A stretch of DNA of 64,000 nt from Escherichia coli (GCF_013315695.1 NZ_CP054353.1), one strand, 5' to 3'; counted from the stretch's first letter, positions 786-37,620 are shown. Numbers and translations are program-made. Notes: generated by a model not told the origin, from the letters alone.

Positions 786-1673
786 TTAGCCATTCTTTCT
801 TCCCGTTTTCAGTCCTCGATGGAAATCGTTAATTCGCTTAATGGTTTTAACCGCACGCTGCGGCACTGCGGAAGCTACCGACCAGACAATCATTTCCAGA
901 CACAACAATACCGTACCATGTAGCGGCGTTTTCCCTTTTTCATCCCCGCGCGGAACATGAATCACGATACTGGCGTCTTTGCTAAAACGTGAATCCAGCG
1001 CGTTTGTCAGCAAAATAACAGGGATCCCCAGCCGCCTCGCCTCACGAAGCGTTGTCAGCCCTTCCCGGTGCGCAGATTTTTGCGCCATCATGATCAGAAC
1101 ATCGCCACGTTGAAGCGCGATCAGTTGCTCGGCAAGGCCAATACCCGTACGGTTTAGTGCCGTGGCAGGCAAACCTATGCGGTTGAATAGTCGTGCGGTA
1201 TAGTCCGCCAGGATACCCGAAGCGCCAATGCCAAAAATAGCGACTTGCCGTGCCTGCACCAACAACGCTACAGCTTGCGCAAGCGCGTGGCGGTTTTCAG
1301 GCTCTGACAGGACATTACAGGTATACAAATGCCCTTCAAGAACAAAGTCGATTGCGGTGTTAACATCGCTCGTCAAGTTACTCACCGTCGTAGACATCTT
1401 TTCGCTGGAACTAAGGGCTGGACCAAGCCACTGTTCCAGAGTGCGTTTCAGATCACGCAGCCCGGCAAACCCCAGGGCCTGTATAGCCCTGATAACAGTG
1501 GCATCGGAAGTGTTCAACGTGGCCGCAATTTCCATCGCCGTTTGCTCGAGTACCACTTCACGATGCTCATTAATGTAGCTGGCGACAGCTCTTAACCCAG
1601 GCGTTAACTGACTCGCGCGAGTGCGAAAACGCTCACCAAAAATATCAACCCGCGCTTTATCTTTCTGGATCAT
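786..1673 (-). CDS. RpiR/MurR-family transcriptional regulator (N-terminal HTH, C-terminal SIS sugar-phosphate-binding domain)
   Basis: 295 aa ORF; HTH region followed by SIS-like glycine-rich motif (VAIFGIGASG); start overlaps upstream gene stop by 4 nt. Confidence 0.8.
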   Translation of the reverse strand: MIQKDKARVDIFGERFRTRASQLTPGLRAVASYINEHREVVLEQTAMEIAATLNTSDATVIRAIQALGFAGLRDLKRTLEQWLGPALSSSEKMSTTVSNLTSDVNTAIDFVLEGHLYTCNVLSEPENRHALAQAVALLVQARQVAIFGIGASGILADYTARLFNRIGLPATALNRTGIGLAEQLIALQRGDVLIMMAQKSAHREGLTTLREARRLGIPVILLTNALDSRFSKDASIVIHVPRGDEKGKTPLHGTVLLCLEMIVWSVASAVPQRAVKTIKRINDFHRGLKTGRKNG

Positions 1674-2617
1674 TTAGCCTCCGGTAGAGGTCGCCCTGCA
1701 ATTTGTGATTGTATCTGCGCAGCCATCAGCCCCAGTGATGCAAAGGAGTTAGAAATTGCCTCTTCACGAGAAATCAGCACATAACGCCCGGAACGACAGG
1801 CAGTCAGAAACTGACACCATCCCGGCATGACTTTTTCCATTGCTGCCAGCTCATCCTGAGGTTTACCACCGGTGTCACCGCGCCAGGTTGCAAAAACAAA
1901 ATCGGCATCCAGTTCAGGTAAACGCTCCGCGCTCACATCCATTCGCCCACCTTCAGGAATGCTCTCAATCAGCGGCGGAAAACGAAAACCAGCATCGCGT
2001 AATACCCGCCCCAGCGAATGATAGCTATGCATCACATTAATTTTTCCCTGGTTTGCCTGAATCACCGATACCGTTATTTTTTGGCTGTCCAGCGTCGCCT
2101 TCAGCGCATTGATTTGTGCCTGATAGCGGCGTTCAAGTATCGCCAGCTGCGACTGCGTTCCTGTAAGTTCTGCCAGCTTGCGATAGATTTCTGGCGCGCC
2201 CCCTTTGAGATGATCAATGCTCACCGTGGGCGCAATTTTTTCAAGTTGTTCAATGGGCGTATTACGGGTCGGTTCTGTGATGATCAAGTCAGGCTTTGCC
2301 GCCACAATCGCTTCAATATCAATATCAGCGGTACCAATAAAGGCGATCGATGAATTATCAAAGTCGACACCTGTCAATAACGCGCCAGATCGAATGAAAT
2401 GGCTACCGTCAGGCCGAGTTCGCCCGTGGCTGGCGACAGGAGGTACACCGAGCTCAATCAGAGGAATAGTGATATCAAGATCGTGTAAAGAGACAATTCT
2501 CTTTGGATGAGCAGGAACAGTGACTTTGCGCCCTAAATCATCAGTAAATACCTGAACAGGTTCTGTTGCACGGGAAAAAAATGACAACAGTATCAGCAGA
2601 GAAAAAAATAAACGCAT
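1670..2617 (-). CDS. periplasmic substrate-binding protein of a siderophore/heme/B12-type (FecB-like) ABC importer
   Basis: ORF 1670..2680; start placed at internal Met preceding a signal peptide (MRLFFSLLILLSFFSRA). Confidence 0.75.
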   Translation of the reverse strand: MRLFFSLLILLSFFSRATEPVQVFTDDLGRKVTVPAHPKRIVSLHDLDITIPLIELGVPPVASHGRTRPDGSHFIRSGALLTGVDFDNSSIAFIGTADIDIEAIVAAKPDLIITEPTRNTPIEQLEKIAPTVSIDHLKGGAPEIYRKLAELTGTQSQLAILERRYQAQINALKATLDSQKITVSVIQANQGKINVMHSYHSLGRVLRDAGFRFPPLIESIPEGGRMDVSAERLPELDADFVFATWRGDTGGKPQDELAAMEKVMPGWCQFLTACRSGRYVLISREEAISNSFASLGLMAAQIQSQIAGRPLPEAK

Positions 2618-2627
2618 ATAACTCCCG

Positions 2628-3677
2628 TTAAAAACTGTTCCTGCGCTGCCAGAGCAGTAGCAAAAAAAATGGTCCACCAATCAGTGAGATAATGATTCCG
2701 GCAGGCAGTTGCAAAGGCAAAAAAGCCAAACGACCAATGCTATCCGCCAGAATAACTAACAACGCCCCCGATACCGCACTCCCCAGCAGTAATGTCGTCT
2801 GCCCGCCACGTAGAATAAAACGTGATATATGGGGTGCTATCAATCCGACAAAACCGATGTTACCAACACACGAAACGCAGACGGCTGTCAGGATTATGGG
2901 TGCGGCGACACGTAACAACGCCAGACGAGAACTATTCACCCCTAACCCGGTTGCAACCTGATGACCAAGCAGAGCGATATCCGCCGTCCTGGCGGTGAAC
3001 AGCAATAAAAGAGCGGCTGGCAACATCCAACAGGCTGAAATACCGACTAACATCCAGTTAGCTGCATGCAGGCTTCCCGATAACCACATCAATGCAGTTT
3101 GTACATCTCGAACATCTGCAGTGGTCATAAATACACCGATACCGGCGGCGAAAAACCAAGAAACACCAATACCAATCAGAACAAATCGCGGGCGGGAAAT
3201 ATCGCGCGCACAAAAAATCACGATTAAAGCCACCAACAGGCCACCAGCAAGACCAGCCACTGGACGCCAGAACACTCCCAGCATTGGAAACTGGAAAATC
3301 AGCCACAGCACAGCCACGCTACATCCTTCTTTGACGCCGATTAACCCAGGATCGGCAAGGCCGTTACGTGCAATGGATTGCATTGCGGCCCCTGCCATAC
3401 CTAACATGGCCCCGCATAGCAATGCCATGATGACTCTCGGCAAGCGAATATCCTGCACAATATAACGTGCGTCTGTGCTTACGTTTTCTGGAGCAAACAA
3501 CGCTCGTCCTACTTCCGATGCCGGAACAGAGAAAGAACCCTGCATCAGACCGAATATCAGTATTCCAACCGCAAACAGAAACAGCCCACCAAGCAACAGC
3601 AGATTTTTAGGGCGTACCAGTGTCGAAAACTTACCAACACGTAGTGGGCGTAGCCCGACGTTCATTATCCGACTCAT
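2628..3677 (-). CDS. ABC importer permease, FecCD family
   Basis: 349 aa polytopic membrane ORF with FecCD-like sequence. Confidence 0.8.
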   Translation of the reverse strand: MSRIMNVGLRPLRVGKFSTLVRPKNLLLLGGLFLFAVGILIFGLMQGSFSVPASEVGRALFAPENVSTDARYIVQDIRLPRVIMALLCGAMLGMAGAAMQSIARNGLADPGLIGVKEGCSVAVLWLIFQFPMLGVFWRPVAGLAGGLLVALIVIFCARDISRPRFVLIGIGVSWFFAAGIGVFMTTADVRDVQTALMWLSGSLHAANWMLVGISACWMLPAALLLLFTARTADIALLGHQVATGLGVNSSRLALLRVAAPIILTAVCVSCVGNIGFVGLIAPHISRFILRGGQTTLLLGSAVSGALLVILADSIGRLAFLPLQLPAGIIISLIGGPFFLLLLWQRRNSF

Positions 3678-4657
3678 TTGAACATCCTCGTCGCCATAAT
3701 GACAAAAACAGGCGCACCAACTAACGCCGTCATGACACCGGTCGCTAATTCATGGGGCGTGAAAAGCGTACGGGCAATAATATCTGCCAGTAATAACAAA
3801 AGTGCGCCGACACAAGCTGAAAGAGGGAGCAGAACGCGCAGATCCGCTGATACCAGGCGCCGGACAATCTGCGGTACTAGCAGGCCGACAAAACCAATGG
3901 GGCCAGCAATCGATACGGCTGCGCCACAGAGCAACGCGATCGCAAGCAGGGTGAATGTTCGCGTGCGGAGTACAGAGACGCCCAGCCCCTGCGCCATGCG
4001 ATCGCCCAGTGCCAACATGTTAAGGGAGGGTGCAAGGTAAAGGGCTAACACAAATCCCCCCAGAGAAAACCAGGCGGACGTACCCAGCGTCGCCCAATCC
4101 TGCCCCGCTAAATCACCTGCTAGCCATGTCCGCATCGCCAGCAGTGTTTGTTCGTCAAGAATCAGGATTGCAGCCGTTATTGAGGACACGAACGCCGATA
4201 GCGCCACGCCGCATAAAGTAACTTTCATTGGCGTTAACCCTGAACGCCCTGCGGAGGAAAGCAGCAATATCAACAGGAACAATAACGCGCCGCCCGTAGA
4301 TGCCAGCAGTGGGCGTCCAACCGGAAAGGCCAGCCCAAGCGCACTGGCAGCAACGACAGCAAGAGCGGCTCCGGCATTTAAGCCTAAAATATGTGGCTCC
4401 CCCAATGGGTTACGAATGACAGCCTGCAACAAAGCACCAGCAACTCCAAGAGAAGCACCGGTAAGCAATGCTGCCGCTAAACGCGGCAAACGGAGTCTTA
4501 CAATTACGTTGTGATCGAAGTTTTGCGGTTCAAAATGAAGAAATGCCTGCAATACCGTTTGTGGTGCAATAAATCGGGCACCAATCCCTGGATATACCAC
4601 GCATCCCACCAGCAGTAAGGCGAGGAAAATTACAGTAACCAGCCCTGTGCGCATCAT
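3674..4657 (-). CDS. ABC importer permease, FecCD family
   Basis: 327 aa polytopic membrane ORF; 4-nt overlaps with both neighbours. Confidence 0.8.
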   Translation of the reverse strand: MMRTGLVTVIFLALLLVGCVVYPGIGARFIAPQTVLQAFLHFEPQNFDHNVIVRLRLPRLAAALLTGASLGVAGALLQAVIRNPLGEPHILGLNAGAALAVVAASALGLAFPVGRPLLASTGGALLFLLILLLSSAGRSGLTPMKVTLCGVALSAFVSSITAAILILDEQTLLAMRTWLAGDLAGQDWATLGTSAWFSLGGFVLALYLAPSLNMLALGDRMAQGLGVSVLRTRTFTLLAIALLCGAAVSIAGPIGFVGLLVPQIVRRLVSADLRVLLPLSACVGALLLLLADIIARTLFTPHELATGVMTALVGAPVFVIMATRMFK

Positions 4658-5463
4658 ACTTTTTCTACACCACGAAACGGCATGAAGAACGGCTTTCCCG
4701 TCAGAGGATTTATTGATGCGTGAACATCAACGTCAAAGACAGCTTTTACCAGCTCAGGCGTGCAATGCTCCCCCTCATTCAACACACGCACCACTTTCCC
4801 CTGGCGTAAAAATATCAACGTATCGCCATAATTGACGGCAAAATTCAGATCATGCAACACCACGACGACTGTACGCCCGTGATGACGTGTTAAATCATGT
4901 AATAACTCAAGAATTTCAACCTGATAACGTAAATCAAGCCAGGTTGTGGGTTCATCCAGCAGGATATAAGGCGTCTTTTGCGCCAACACCATCGCAATCC
5001 AGCAACGCTGACGCTGCCCGCCAGAGAGTTTTTCAACAGGTAAATGTGCAAACTCCTGCGTACCCGTTAATTTCAGGGCCTCTTCTACCGCCAGCTCATC
5101 GGCGTCGCTCCATTGACGAATGAAATTCTGCCAGGGAAAACGCCCACGCGACACCAGTTCATAAACGGTTAAGCCCTCCGGCAATAATGGCGACTGCGGC
5201 AAGATCCCAAGTCTACGGGATAACGCTTTCGTTGGTTGCTCGTGAATCGCTTTGCCATCAAGCAATATCGAACCGCCCATGGGTTGCAAGATACGTGCAA
5301 TGGTGCTGAGCAACGTCGACTTTCCACAGCCGTTTGCCCCAACCAGAACGGTCATTTTTTCTGTGGGAACGGAGAAAGAAACACCATCAACAATGATCTT
5401 CTTGTGATACCCGGCAGAAACATTGTCGAGGATCAGCCCCTGCCCTTTTGCGTTATGTGCCAC
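4654..5463 (-). CDS. ABC importer ATP-binding protein (FecE-like)
   Basis: Walker A GANGCGKST, ABC signature LSGGQRQR, Walker B ILLDEPT. Confidence 0.85.
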   Translation of the reverse strand: MAHNAKGQGLILDNVSAGYHKKIIVDGVSFSVPTEKMTVLVGANGCGKSTLLSTIARILQPMGGSILLDGKAIHEQPTKALSRRLGILPQSPLLPEGLTVYELVSRGRFPWQNFIRQWSDADELAVEEALKLTGTQEFAHLPVEKLSGGQRQRCWIAMVLAQKTPYILLDEPTTWLDLRYQVEILELLHDLTRHHGRTVVVVLHDLNFAVNYGDTLIFLRQGKVVRVLNEGEHCTPELVKAVFDVDVHASINPLTGKPFFMPFRGVEKV

Positions 5464-5469
5464 GTGTAC

Positions 5470-5836
5470 GCCAACTTAATCAAAGACAAACAAAAATAAA
5501 ACTCATTCTCCTTTGAGAGTTTGACGCCACAAAATGTAGTAGTCAAGCAGTTAAAAGCCACACAAAAACAAGGTAAATAACAGGTAAAATATTTTTGCAC
5601 ATAAAAATAAAAACATTAAATATCAATAATTTAAAAGCAATCAAATTGTATAAACTTTTCATAAAAACACATGTAGCAATTTTTTGTTATTTCTCATTTA
5701 CTACTACATTACTGCGTGATTGAATGATTCTCAATTACATATCCGATGGCGAAATAACAAACGGATAGTGCTTAGTGAGCAATAAGAAACAATTTTCACT
5801 CGCGACAATCCGCGAGTTTTTGGGATAACAGACTAA
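5470..5836. promoter_or_regulatory. AT-rich divergent promoter region between the ABC operon and the receptor gene; weak Fur-box-like motif near 5717-5738
   Basis: about 370 bp of AT-rich sequence between divergent starts; tgattgaatgattctcaattac resembles the Fur consensus only partially. Confidence 0.3.
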
Positions 5837-7978
5837 ATGGCTATGTTCACACCTTCATTCTCAGGACTCAAAGGTCGGGCGCTCTTTTCACTGCTTTTTG
5901 CGGCACCGATGATTCATGCAACAGACTCTGTAACGACCAAAGATGGCGAAACAATCACTGTTACAGCAGATGCAAATACCGCAACTGAGGCAACCGATGG
6001 TTATCAACCTCTGAGCACCTCTACGGCGACATTAACCGATATGCCGATGCTGGATATCCCGCAGGTGGTCAATACGGTTAGCGATCAGGTTCTGGAAAAC
6101 CAGAATGCGACAACGCTGGATGAGGCGCTTTATAACGTCAGTAACGTGGTACAGACCAATACATTAGGCGGGACTCAGGATGCTTTTGTACGCCGTGGGT
6201 TTGGCGCAAACCGGGATGGCTCCATCATGACCAACGGCCTGCGAACTGTACTTCCTCGCAGTTTCAACGCCGCCACAGAACGTGTGGAAGTGCTAAAAGG
6301 TCCGGCCTCCACGCTGTATGGCATTCTCGATCCTGGTGGATTGATTAACGTCGTGACCAAGCGCCCGGAAAAAACATTCCATGGTTCTGTCTCAGCCACG
6401 TCCTCCAGTTTTGGCGGAGGCACTGGGCAACTTGATATCACAGGTCCCATTGAAGGCACTCAGCTGGCATACCGCCTGACGGGGGAAGTGCAGGATGAAG
6501 ATTACTGGCGAAACTTCGGTAAAGAGCGCAGTACATTTATTGCCCCGTCACTCACCTGGTTTGGTGATAATGCAACAGTAACCATGCTCTATTCCCATCG
6601 GGACTATAAAACTCCGTTCGATCGTGGAACGATTTTCGACCTTACGACGAAACAGCCCGTAAACGTTGATCGAAAAATACGTTTTGACGAACCGTTTAAT
6701 ATTACAGATGGTCAGTCCGATCTGGCGCAACTCAACGCAGAATATCATCTCAATAGCCAGTGGACAGCGCGCTTTGATTACAGCTACAGCCAGGATAAAT
6801 ACAGCGACAATCAGGCTCGCGTTACCGCGTATGATGCAACGACAGGAACGCTGACACGGCGTGTTGATGCAACTCAGGGATCTACCCAGCGTATGCATTC
6901 TACTCGTGCGGATCTGCAAGGGAATGCTGATATTGCTGGGTTCTATAATGAGATTCTGGGTGGGGTGTCATATGAATATTATGATCTTCTGCGCACAGAT
7001 ATGATTCGCTGTAAAAACGCTAAAGATTTCAATATCTACAACCCCGTTTATGGCAATACCAGCAAATGCACAACGGTTTCGGCGTCGGACAGTGATCAGA
7101 CGATCAAACAGGAGAGCTACTCAGCGTATGCACAGGACGCGCTCTATCTGACCGATAACTGGATTGCCGTCGCCGGGATCCGCTATCAGTATTACACGCA
7201 GTATGCGGGTAAAGGCCGTCCTTTTAATGTCAATACTGACAGCCGCGATGAACAATGGACGCCCAAACTGGGGTTAGTCTACAAACTGACGCCATCGGTA
7301 TCCTTATTTGCCAATTATTCGCAAACATTTATGCCGCAGTCGTCAATTGCCAGCTACATTGGCGATCTTCCACCGGAATCATCTAATGCTTACGAAGTCG
7401 GGGCAAAATTCGAGCTATTCGATGGTATCACCGCAGATATTGCGCTGTTTGATATCCATAAACGTAACGTGTTGTATACCGAAAGTATTGGTGATGAAAC
7501 CATTGCCAAAACGGCAGGCCGTGTTCGTTCAAGAGGGGTAGAAGTCGACCTTGCGGGAGCATTAACTGAAAACATTAATATCATTGCCAGCTACGGCTAT
7601 ACCGATGCTAAGGTTCTGGAGGATCCTGATTATGCAGGGAAACCATTGCCGAATGTTCCTCGTCATACCGGTTCGCTATTCCTGACTTATGACATTCATA
7701 ACATGCCTGGCAATAACACACTGACGTTTGGCGGTGGTGGACATGGCGTAAGCCGTCGTTCGGCAACCAATGGGGCTGACTATTATCTGCCAGGCTATTT
7801 CGTTGCCGATGCCTTCGCTGCATACAAAATGAAATTGCAGTATCCGGTCACACTGCAATTAAACGTCAAAAACCTGTTTGATAAAACGTATTACACCTCT
7901 TCCATCGCCACAAATAATCTGGGGAATCAGATTGGCGATCCGCGTGAAGTGCAATTCACGGTGAAAATGGAATTTTGA
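5837..7978 (+). CDS. TonB-dependent outer-membrane receptor
   Basis: 713 aa; signal peptide, TonB-box-like ETITVTA, plug and barrel motifs, C-terminal Phe. Confidence 0.85.
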   Translation: MAMFTPSFSGLKGRALFSLLFAAPMIHATDSVTTKDGETITVTADANTATEATDGYQPLSTSTATLTDMPMLDIPQVVNTVSDQVLENQNATTLDEALYNVSNVVQTNTLGGTQDAFVRRGFGANRDGSIMTNGLRTVLPRSFNAATERVEVLKGPASTLYGILDPGGLINVVTKRPEKTFHGSVSATSSSFGGGTGQLDITGPIEGTQLAYRLTGEVQDEDYWRNFGKERSTFIAPSLTWFGDNATVTMLYSHRDYKTPFDRGTIFDLTTKQPVNVDRKIRFDEPFNITDGQSDLAQLNAEYHLNSQWTARFDYSYSQDKYSDNQARVTAYDATTGTLTRRVDATQGSTQRMHSTRADLQGNADIAGFYNEILGGVSYEYYDLLRTDMIRCKNAKDFNIYNPVYGNTSKCTTVSASDSDQTIKQESYSAYAQDALYLTDNWIAVAGIRYQYYTQYAGKGRPFNVNTDSRDEQWTPKLGLVYKLTPSVSLFANYSQTFMPQSSIASYIGDLPPESSNAYEVGAKFELFDGITADIALFDIHKRNVLYTESIGDETIAKTAGRVRSRGVEVDLAGALTENINIIASYGYTDAKVLEDPDYAGKPLPNVPRHTGSLFLTYDIHNMPGNNTLTFGGGGHGVSRRSATNGADYYLPGYFVADAFAAYKMKLQYPVTLQLNVKNLFDKTYYTSSIATNNLGNQIGDPREVQFTVKMEF

Positions 7979-16119: not shown

Positions 16120-16603
16120 TACAGCTTAATATTGCCCCGATAAGCGGGGCAATCTCTTATAATCCACCATTCATAATTCCCATCAATATATAAACACATA
16201 CATATCCAACCTTTATTTAACATTAATACTCAATTTAATGTTAAATCGTCATATGCAAGCGATATTGTAATTAAAGTAAGTGAATACATCACAACATAAC
16301 TATTTGATATTATTTGAATACTTTACTTTTATCTCACCAGATTTAAATTTAATAATTAAAAAACAATGTTGCAGGGATCACACTACACAGTATTGAACAT
16401 TGTGATTGATATATTGCCCCCCTACTATCCATTAAACATAAATATTTGTTTCACCGAATAACAACATATTTAAAAGAAACACAAAAGCATTCTCACTCTT
16501 TATTGAATTAATATTCATATTCACGTAACGAATTTATTAGAACCCTCTCAACAGTCGATATTCATCATTATTATATATTTGCGTTATATAAGGAGATATA
16601 TCC

Positions 16604-20633: not shown

Positions 20634-20748
20634 TTTGATATCCTCACAATACGCTTGTTCGGCGGAGTAAGAACCCGGATAACAATGATGATGATCATCA
20701 GTTATTTTGACGATCTGCCTGAAAGTGAAGATTTATAAGGAGTTGTCG

Positions 20749-22689: not shown

Positions 22690-22930
22690 TGGTTACCAGA
22701 ATCAGGGCAGTCTTAGGAGTGGCGGCATATAGCCAAAATAACGTGAGCGGGTCCATGCCCGACAGAATCGTTACTCTCTCCCATCCGGACTCTAACCGTC
22801 GGCCCCGGAATTACACCGGATCTGCTGTCCTTTGAGTTCGCACCCAAAGCGCTCGCGGGCTTTCAACTGAGTTGATTTACCGCCGGTGGGGAATTTCGCC
22901 CCGCCCTGAGAATAAGCGGATTCACTATAA
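22690..22930 (-). ncRNA. sroG: FMN riboswitch (RFN element) in the ribB leader
   Basis: minus-strand sequence AGGGCGGGGCGAAATTCCCCACCGGCGG ... GGATGGGAGAGAGTAACG matches RFN conserved blocks; bounds approximate. Confidence 0.7.
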
Positions 22931-23038
22931 CGCTAATGATTAGCGGCAGCAACGCATAGCTTCACATAATTCTGGTTTATGACTTACCCTTATCGCACTA
23001 CAATGGCACTCAACACCTATCAGTACAGGGAAACTACA

Positions 23039-37414: not shown

Positions 37415-37620
37415 CGTTAATTATCCGCAGTTGTGATAAGCGCAGTGTATTTCGTAAAACATTGCCATTCCCTGCTCTGGCGCAATATTCATTCTTATTT
37501 TCGCGTTGATTCACGAACTGTGAATTACATATTCACGGCAGCAAAAAATATAAAACCACATTTTTAGTGGTAGTTTGTGGCGGTGAATTTTTCCAGACAA
37601 ATACATAAACTGGAGTTGCC

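Follow-up and report, generated by a model that had tools for sequence, protein, structure and literature searches.

A predicted base-level map of the bidirectional fit promoter of Escherichia coli

Which sequences between the divergent fitA and fitB genes of Escherichia coli allow Fur and the local regulator FitR to repress a siderophore-uptake cassette in both directions? The DNA in question lies at positions 5464-5836 of a 64,000-nucleotide stretch of an E. coli genome (GCF_013315695.1, NZ_CP054353.1), hereafter the window. Open reading frames (ORFs), RefSeq annotation and primer mapping define this interval as the fitA/fitB intergenic control region, the bidirectional fit promoter of the cassette. 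It extends over 373 bp, from the GTG start of the ABC ATPase gene fitB (minus strand, 5463) to the ATG of the TonB-dependent receptor gene fitA (5837). Primers published for the "fit promoter" (PMC2593036, Table 2) have exact matches at 5457-5480 and 5794-5815 of the window; hence, this is the very 359-bp fragment of the published lacZ fusions and FitR gel shifts. A first-pass annotation, made from the sequence alone, described an AT-rich gap of about 370 bp between divergent receptor and ABC operon starts, in agreement with the measured length and a GC content of 0.31. It also proposed control shared by Fur and an RpiR-type regulator, which is correct and already published (PMC2593036).

Much of the regulation is known from experiment. 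Ouyang and Isaacson (2008; PMC2593036) described the intergenic DNA as a bidirectional promoter that is repressed by Fur and also by FitR, the latter by 2-5 fold in both directions, and demonstrated specific binding of FitR to the fragment by electrophoretic mobility shift assay (EMSA). The two repressors acted independently, with multiplicative effects and without any sign of cooperativity. Expression rose 23-fold in a fur mutant, as measured by quantitative reverse-transcription PCR, and was induced about 3-fold by dipyridyl; the authors named the exact Fur and FitR sites as still to be identified in future work. In strain CFT073, Fur chromatin immunoprecipitation sequencing (ChIP-seq) by Banerjee et al. 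(2020; PMC7157518, Table S5A) yielded two peaks here, at 3607777 (height 2545, assigned to c3774) and 3607979 (height 2720, c3775); the heights at fepA, cirA, and chuA are 3285, 3050, and 3245, respectively. According to RNA-seq in the same study, the fur mutation raised c3774 5.7-fold, c3775 7.0-fold (6.96), and fitR (c3770), which belongs to the same Fur-regulated operon, 2.3-fold, compared with a 274-fold derepression of fepA. Thus, control by Fur and FitR has been known since 2008 and Fur occupancy since 2020. New here, and inferred by us, are a base-level map of the region, the TGTAGT/ACTACA motifs, a spacing constraint, and leader hairpins.

We consider the region, with a probability of about 80%, to be a back-to-back bidirectional promoter in which Fur-Fe2+ and FitR each repress both directions independently, with Fur bound at two places in vivo. 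The parts concerning repression and Fur occupancy come from the published experiments combined with the mapping given here, and the promoter layout comes from the present comparative analysis. For the latter, one genome per species was scanned, yielding 39 orthologous loci from Escherichia, Enterobacter, Lelliottia, Silvania, Huaxiibacter, Citrobacter, Kosakonia, Kluyvera, Yokenella, Erwinia, Pantoea, and Affinibrenneria, with FitA identities of 71-99% and a divergent ATPase gene in all of them. Alignments of 43 sequences were used for identity, 40 for spacing, and 38 for fitA leaders.

The Fur matrix was derived from CFT073 ChIP summits because Chen et al. (2007) do not provide site sequences. 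Consensus-seeded palindromic expectation maximization, run on 18 other strong summits with ±60 bp around each, converged on GATAATGATAATCATTATC (15.7 bits); the best site of each training region scored 11.9-24.4 bits and was located within ±35 bp of its summit. The iroN summit (CFT073 1198978; PMC7157518, Table S5A) was excluded from training, as it falls about 800 bp into the iroN coding sequence, where no Fur box is close by; the coordinate may have been misprinted for 1197978, or the peak may truly be intragenic.

The top match of this matrix in the whole window is Fur box 1 (AAAAATAAAACTCATTCTC, 5492-5510) on the fitB side, with 15.2 bits and 13/19 consensus positions. The boxes between yqjH (nfeF) and yqjI (nfeR), at 48296 and 48302, reach 12.2 bits (14/19) and 11.4 bits (12/19). 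Fur box 2 (TTGAATGATTCTCAATTAC, 5720-5738) scores 10.0 bits, with 11/19 consensus positions. It is the site noticed in the first-pass annotation, whose quoted string tgattgaatgattctcaattac is indeed found at 5717-5738 and holds this 19-mer. The annotation missed box 1, the best site, and its conclusions that the region has only weak Fur-box-like motifs and no clean box like that of yqjH do not stand, given the score of box 1 and ChIP peaks comparable to those of fepA, cirA, and chuA. In 5000 dinucleotide shuffles of the region, a maximum of at least 15.2 bits had a probability of 0.009, and the same score joined by a second, non-overlapping site of at least 10 bits a probability of 0.0012. The annotation would have abandoned Fur control if no Fur score exceeded background and expression were independent of iron; neither part of this condition is borne out by the observations.

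Occupancy in vivo agrees with these matches. CFT073 is collinear with the window here, with 4 substitutions over 421 positions and no indels, and the published summits can be transferred directly: 3607777 maps to 5524, 23 bp from the center of box 1, and 3607979 to 5726, 3 bp from the center of box 2. Both offsets are inside the ±35 bp range of the training peaks. Both boxes are also conserved. The identical 19-mer of box 2 occurs in 34 of the 39 orthologous loci, and box 1 is present in nearly all of them, often with a second overlapping site 6 bp off; mean identity to the window sequence is 0.94 for box 1 and 0.99 for box 2, with conserved cores CTCATTCTC and GAATGATTCTC, respectively. Support for box 2 comes from the ChIP summit and conservation rather than from its score. 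A third matrix match, of 8.0 bits at 5785-5803, was discarded for lack of conservation.

Two further blocks are strongly conserved. The block at 5535-5547 (TGTAGTAGTCAAG) has a mean identity of 1.00, and the block at 5697-5709 (TTTACTACTACAT) of 0.99, compared with 0.49 for the interval between them, the lowest value of the region, and 0.61-0.75 for the adjacent coding sequence. They repeat TT(G/T)ACTACTACA in opposite orientations, each directed toward its own gene and starting with a -35-like hexamer. Promoter candidates with at least 8/12 consensus matches, 13 in total, were ranked by conservation. The most conserved (1.0) is the predicted PfitA (5697-5725, plus strand), with a -35 element TTTACT at 5697-5702, a 17-bp spacer, a -10 element TTGAAT at 5720-5725, and a transcription start near 5732. 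The TG at 5717-5718 is invariant and the next base varies, as in the TGn pattern of extended -10 elements, and the distance from motif R, described below, to TTGAAT is 20 bp in 40/40 sequences. The second most conserved is the predicted PfitB (5518-5546, minus strand), with TTGACT at 5546-5541, a 17-bp spacer, CAAACT at 5523-5518, and a start near 5511. Its -10 element appears in orthologues as CAAACT, CAAGAT, CAAAAT, or CATGAT, with A2 and T6 kept, as read by eye from hand-made reverse complements in about six representative genera. The Fur boxes overlap the -10/+1 regions of these predicted promoters, where box 1 would cover +2 to +20 of PfitB and box 2 would cover -12 to +7 of PfitA. Two mirror-image promoter-like sequences that face inward were also observed, at 5513-5547 (plus) and 5699-5734 (minus), with TTGAGA inside each Fur box as the -35 element and part of motif L or R as the -10 element. 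They are conserved only through overlap with conserved elements and are probably not functional.

The conserved blocks contain candidate half-sites for FitR. Motif L (TGTAGTAGT, 5535-5543, plus strand) is a part of the first block, which is invariant in 43/43 sequences, and lies over the PfitB -35 element; motif R (ACTACTACA on the plus strand, that is, TGTAGTAGT on the minus strand, 5700-5708) is a part of the second and lies over the PfitA -35 element. Their TGTAGT cores are at 5535-5540 and 5703-5708. These are the only two copies of TGTAGTAGT in the 64-kb window, where 0.16 are expected by chance, and every orthologous region has one copy per orientation. TGTAG/CTACA occurs at 7.6 per kb in the intergenic regions and at 1.1 per kb in the flanks. 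An auxiliary candidate half-site, motif R' (TGTAGC, 5672-5677, plus strand), is located 28 bp upstream of R; TGTAG is found at this position in 28/40 sequences, the carriers being from Escherichia, Enterobacter, Lelliottia, Citrobacter, and Kosakonia. FitR itself has the domains expected of the cognate regulator of an RpiR-family operator, HTH_6 (PF01418, 5.2e-10) and SIS (PF01380, 7.7e-14). In this family, RccR binds TGTAGT/ACTACA pseudo-palindromes with linkers of 3 or 16 nt, as established by ChIP-seq, surface plasmon resonance, and footprinting (Campilongo et al., 2017; PMC5489143). The inverted half-sites are thus present at fit as L and R, with R' reading TGTAGC. Compact pseudo-palindromes with a 3- or 16-nt linker were not found among L, R, and R', where 25 nt separate R' from R and 159 nt separate L from R. 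Because the linkers differ, we do not classify the region as an RccR-type operator; the half-site alone is in common. The retention of fitR with the cassette in Erwinia rhapontici and Kluyvera intermedia indicates that the regulator and the motif travel together.

Accommodating these elements, both divergent promoters would have the same layout: a -35-like hexamer (TTGACT for fitB, TTTACT for fitA) within an invariant TT(G/T)ACTACTACA block, and a Fur box downstream over -10/+1, box 2 for fitA and box 1 for fitB. Fur would block open-complex formation or promoter escape, and FitR on the TGTAGT/ACTACA half-sites would block -35 recognition. With FitR at both -35 elements and Fur at both -10/+1 regions, the model would account for the published findings that each promoter is repressed by both regulators and that the effects multiply. 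More speculatively, the half-sites and a central IHF-like site, held in helical register over 164-166 or 186-188 bp, may form one looped repression complex, and hairpins in a leader of about 105 nt, the second of them terminator-like, may add a control step after initiation.

Several observations weigh against this model. A sigma-70 consensus scan of 5400-5900 gave no promoter at its threshold, and the 13 weaker candidates were ranked only after that; the proposed fitA -10 element TTGAAT has T rather than the canonical A at position 2, and a literature search by locus tag retrieved no transcription start site data. By score, box 2 taken by itself does not rise above the AT-rich background, as a maximum of at least 10 bits had a probability of 0.16 in the 5000 shuffles. 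With the region's own composition as background, the boxes fall to 9.3 and 7.8 bits, and those of yqjH to 9.3 and 8.1. On the FitR side, published binding is an EMSA of the whole 359-bp fragment, the linkers of 25 nt (R'-R) and 159 nt (L-R) differ from the 3 or 16 nt of RccR, and E. coli has no clear partner half-site beside L. As for the central site, most orthologues are one mismatch off the IHF consensus (T for A at position 2, over nine specified positions, by eye), the consensus arises by chance in 5.6% of region shuffles, and the phasing argument comes down to essentially two insertions or deletions on a single branch and to the lack of any others.

How the two promoters are coupled, if at all, depends on the meaning of their spacing. 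The L-R distance falls into two classes in 40/40 sequences, 164-166 bp in Escherichia, Enterobacter, Lelliottia, Silvania, and Huaxiibacter, and 186-188 bp in all others. The lengths of the flanks vary, from 134 to 286 bp between R and the ATG and from 69 to 133 bp between the fitB start and L. Near the middle, E. coli has the motif TATCAATAATTTA (5621-5633, plus strand), an exact match to the IHF consensus WATCAANNNNTTR, to which IHF may bind. Among the orthologous loci, only 4 share the exact consensus; a related TCA[A/T]-N4-TT[A/G], typically TTTCAAT-N3-TTAA, has a fixed central position in 27 of the 39, namely L+88/89 and R-77 where the L-R distance is short and L+99/100 and R-87/88 where it is long. 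The long class therefore has 10-11 bp extra on each side of the central motif, about one helical turn each, which fits the needs of a phased complex of three sites, with the DNA looped and bent at the center. The fixed register of the half-sites and the IHF-like site suggests, at a more speculative level and as judged from sequence, one looped repression complex. Phase-dependent repression loops operate at gal (with HU), lac, and ara. The fit region resembles them in having distant candidate operators at divergent promoters, helical-turn spacing, and a central candidate site for a bending protein; at fit, the evidence is comparative alone.

However, the fixed spacing could be history, not function. 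The explanation that the L-R distance merely reflects shared ancestry and a few indels, with Fur and FitR acting locally and independently at each promoter and no loop, has close to an even chance of being right, if slightly short of it. Just two length classes exist and they follow clades, so that the difference of 21-22 bp may represent one or two historical events, and the independent, multiplicative repression observed experimentally also agrees with local action. It accounts less easily for an L-R interval that is the least conserved in sequence and yet is kept to ±1 bp within each class, when neighboring segments vary by 9-140 bp, or for the splitting of the extra length into 10-11 bp on either side of the conserved central motif. 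The full alternative, a single phased switch in which FitR half-sites at both -35 elements, 165 or 187 bp apart and bridged by an IHF-type bend, close one loop that shuts both promoters, while a covarying leader (P1, GCAAU, P2) adds attenuation or RyhB control, can be offered only tentatively, and we would sooner bet against it.

The leader itself is the next feature that calls for an explanation. If PfitA starts near 5732, as predicted, the fitA 5' untranslated region (5' UTR) is about 105 nt long. Its first hairpin, P1 (TATCCG ... CGGATA, 5740-5767, plus strand, arms 5740-5745 and 5762-5767), is supported by covariation: compensatory changes occur in each of the 6 pairs, the paired fraction of cells is 91.7% compared with 22-39% in slid controls, and 0/500 shuffles reach the observed value. 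It is followed at 5775-5785 by a conserved single-stranded motif, GUGAGCAAUAA in E. coli and GGGCAAUGA in orthologues, in which GCAAT is nearly invariant in the 38 leaders. The second, terminator-like hairpin, P2 (ACTCGCG-acaatc-CGCGAGT, followed by a T-run; 5798-5821, stem 5798-5817), ends 19 nt before the ATG. In E. coli, UUUU follows a 7-bp stem that contains 5 GC pairs. All 38 leaders have a hairpin of 6 bp or more (mean dG -9.4, mean z -1.8), with sequences that are unrelated from genus to genus. The 3' end lies 17-22 nt before the ATG in 29 of them; in the 9 for which the search gave an extended helix, the distance is 9-13 nt. RNAalifold on the MAFFT alignment recovers P1 alone because P2 cannot be aligned by sequence, and P2 was judged in each sequence separately. 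Both hairpins are present in the minimum free energy and centroid structures of the E. coli leader (-22.1 kcal/mol, z = -2.0). An ATG-GCG-AAA-TAA mini-ORF inside P1 is specific to E. coli and was rejected as a leader peptide; other small ORFs of the region are mechanical, with no conservation of frame.

These elements could constitute a riboregulatory fitA leader, that is, an attenuator, an RyhB-activated leader or a 5'UTR-derived small RNA, with the Fur boxes being only a part of the control. P1 covaries, and P2, however unrelated its sequences, holds a fixed position in all 38 leaders. In addition, RyhB AUUGCUCAC, the core of that RNA, is complementary to the GCAAU motif, with 9 Watson-Crick pairs in E. 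coli (RyhB sequence verified). Deletion of ryhB in the fur mutant lowered c3775 from 6.96- to 4.0-fold, a drop similar to that of cirA, from 9.85 to 4.92 (PMC7157518). On the other hand, this 1.7-fold effect is below the threshold of that paper, and the energies of RyhB-leader duplexes are no better than those of shuffles (z near 0), so that RyhB targeting is a lead only. A search against Rfam 15 produced sub-threshold chance matches only (MIR827, 27.6 bits against a threshold of 65; Leu_leader, 16.2 against 50). P2 was not called by a terminator scan of 5400-5900, and the U-run that follows it in most genera is absent in Erwinia and Pantoea. Furthermore, the start site that would place these elements in RNA is a predicted one. 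Thus, riboregulation of fitA seems possible but rather doubtful. The published fitA fusion ends at 5815, inside P2, and therefore could not report on it.

It is unlikely that the invariant TT(G/T)ACTACTACA blocks are merely promoter elements, a -35 hexamer and the adjacent spacer, and that FitR binds elsewhere in the fragment. Such an explanation would agree with the -35-like hexamer at the start of each block, 17 bp from a plausible -10 element, and with FitR binding having been demonstrated for the whole 359-bp fragment only. But a -35 hexamer does not need six further invariant bases, the extension is the exact half-site of a characterized RpiR regulator, and a third TGTAG copy is kept 28 bp upstream of R, outside the promoter elements. 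The leader palindromes P1 and P2 vary in sequence and keep pairing, which is the behavior of an RNA structure, not of a protein operator.

Finally, the view, developed from the possible H-NS role raised in the first-pass annotation, that Fur contact is weak or marginal, with silencing mostly by H-NS coating AT-rich DNA, is very improbable, as the low GC content (0.26-0.31 in E. coli) and the modest derepression in the fur mutant (5.7- to 7-fold, compared with 274-fold for fepA) are outweighed by Fur ChIP peaks among the tallest in the CFT073 genome, the best Fur matrix match of the window, the same boxes in orthologues at GC 0.36-0.46, and continued repression by FitR as the explanation of the modest effect. 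The GC content declines from 0.31 overall to about 0.26 in the core of the region, and this strong AT-richness is specific to E. coli, 0.30 compared with the 0.36-0.46 of orthologues that keep the same conserved elements; these elements do not depend on it. The E. coli composition would suit an H-NS-silenced region. A literature search by locus tag found no H-NS occupancy data for the fit region.

The Fur- and FitR-repressed back-to-back promoter is a real feature and ordinary in kind. It is the same DNA as the published E. coli fit promoter (Ouyang and Isaacson, 2006, 2008; Banerjee et al., 2020); those studies left Fur sites, FitR sites, and start sites unmapped, and a base-level map is added here by comparative means. 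Similar to fepA-fes, fepB-entC, and fepD-entS, it is a short intergenic region between divergent receptor or transport genes with Fur boxes over -10/+1 (predicted in the case of fit), and its ChIP heights of 2545 and 2720 are close to the 2860-3485 observed at those loci. Unlike them, each of which has one shared summit in CFT073, fit has two summits, with boxes 228 bp apart, and it has a second, locus-specific repressor, with derepression in the fur mutant limited to 5.7- to 7-fold. The likeness to RccR and HexR of Pseudomonas consists in the HTH_6 and SIS domains of FitR and in the half-site, as TGTAGT/ACTACA is identical to the L and R cores and R' conforms to TGTAGY; flexibility of linker lengths is documented for RccR (PMC5489143). 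In contrast, RccR sites are compact (15 or 28 bp), whereas the inverted half-sites at fit lie 31 bp (R'-R) and 165 or 187 bp (L-R) from each other, and FitR controls an iron transporter, RccR carbon metabolism. The value of the analysis is a testable base-level map comprising two Fur boxes, two predicted promoters, and a candidate FitR half-site with a precedent among RpiR regulators. Should both the spacing constraint and the hairpins of the leader prove functional, fit would exemplify compact control of a siderophore receptor in three layers, consisting of a global metal sensor, a local ligand-responsive looped repressor, and a leader RNA, and would provide a handle on the FitR inducer and hence on the Fit substrate.

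The region belongs to a six-gene cassette (window 786-7978) inserted between ygiN and parE in E. coli. The receptor gene fitA occupies 5837-7978 on the plus strand (TIGR01783, E = 7.7e-111; RefSeq annotation). On the minus strand, ORFs, domains, and RefSeq define the operon fitB (ATPase)-fitC/D (permeases)-fitE (binding protein)-fitR (RpiR-family repressor) at 786-5463, in which the fitB ORF (4654-5463, GTG start) is followed by two FecCD permease genes, the gene for the periplasmic binding protein and, at 786-1673, fitR, a gene of the RpiR/MurR family. Of 5426 complete E. coli genomes, 1870, or about a third, have the fit control region, including uropathogenic E. coli and O157:H7. Two main allele classes are observed, one with at least 99% identity and the other with 90-95%, the latter including O157:H7. 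Erwinia rhapontici and Kluyvera intermedia have the same six-gene order, with fitR as the final operon gene, in unrelated genomic contexts, near PTS and glycosyl hydrolase genes in Erwinia and near TetR and YkuD genes in Kluyvera. The patchy presence, the two allele classes, and the unrelated contexts thus indicate that the fit cassette behaves as a mobile unit. The E. coli fitB start (5461-5463) is a GTG with a weak Shine-Dalgarno sequence. In Kosakonia, Kluyvera, and Erwinia fitB starts further upstream (MPQR…), as confirmed by the called gene product in two of them; therefore, the N-terminus and the length of the 5' UTR vary between clades.

Enterobacter and Lelliottia have a small inverted repeat, CACCCTG-N6-9-CCAGGG, 20-45 bp to the right of motif L, which is degenerate in E. 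coli (GCCACACAAAAACAAGG). Elsewhere in the window, other Fur matrix matches of 11.8-14.7 bits are found at 22926-22944 (TATAACGCTAATGATTAGC), 16557-16575, 37484-37502, 20678-20696, and 61300-61318. The intergenic region between nfeF (yqjH) and nfeR (yqjI) contains a palindromic element resembling repetitive extragenic palindromic (REP) sequences (…GGATGCGGCGTGAACGCCTTATCCGGCCTAC…) at 48395-48440, located between the Fur boxes at 48296-48320 and a Fur-like match at 48458-48476 near the nfeR start.

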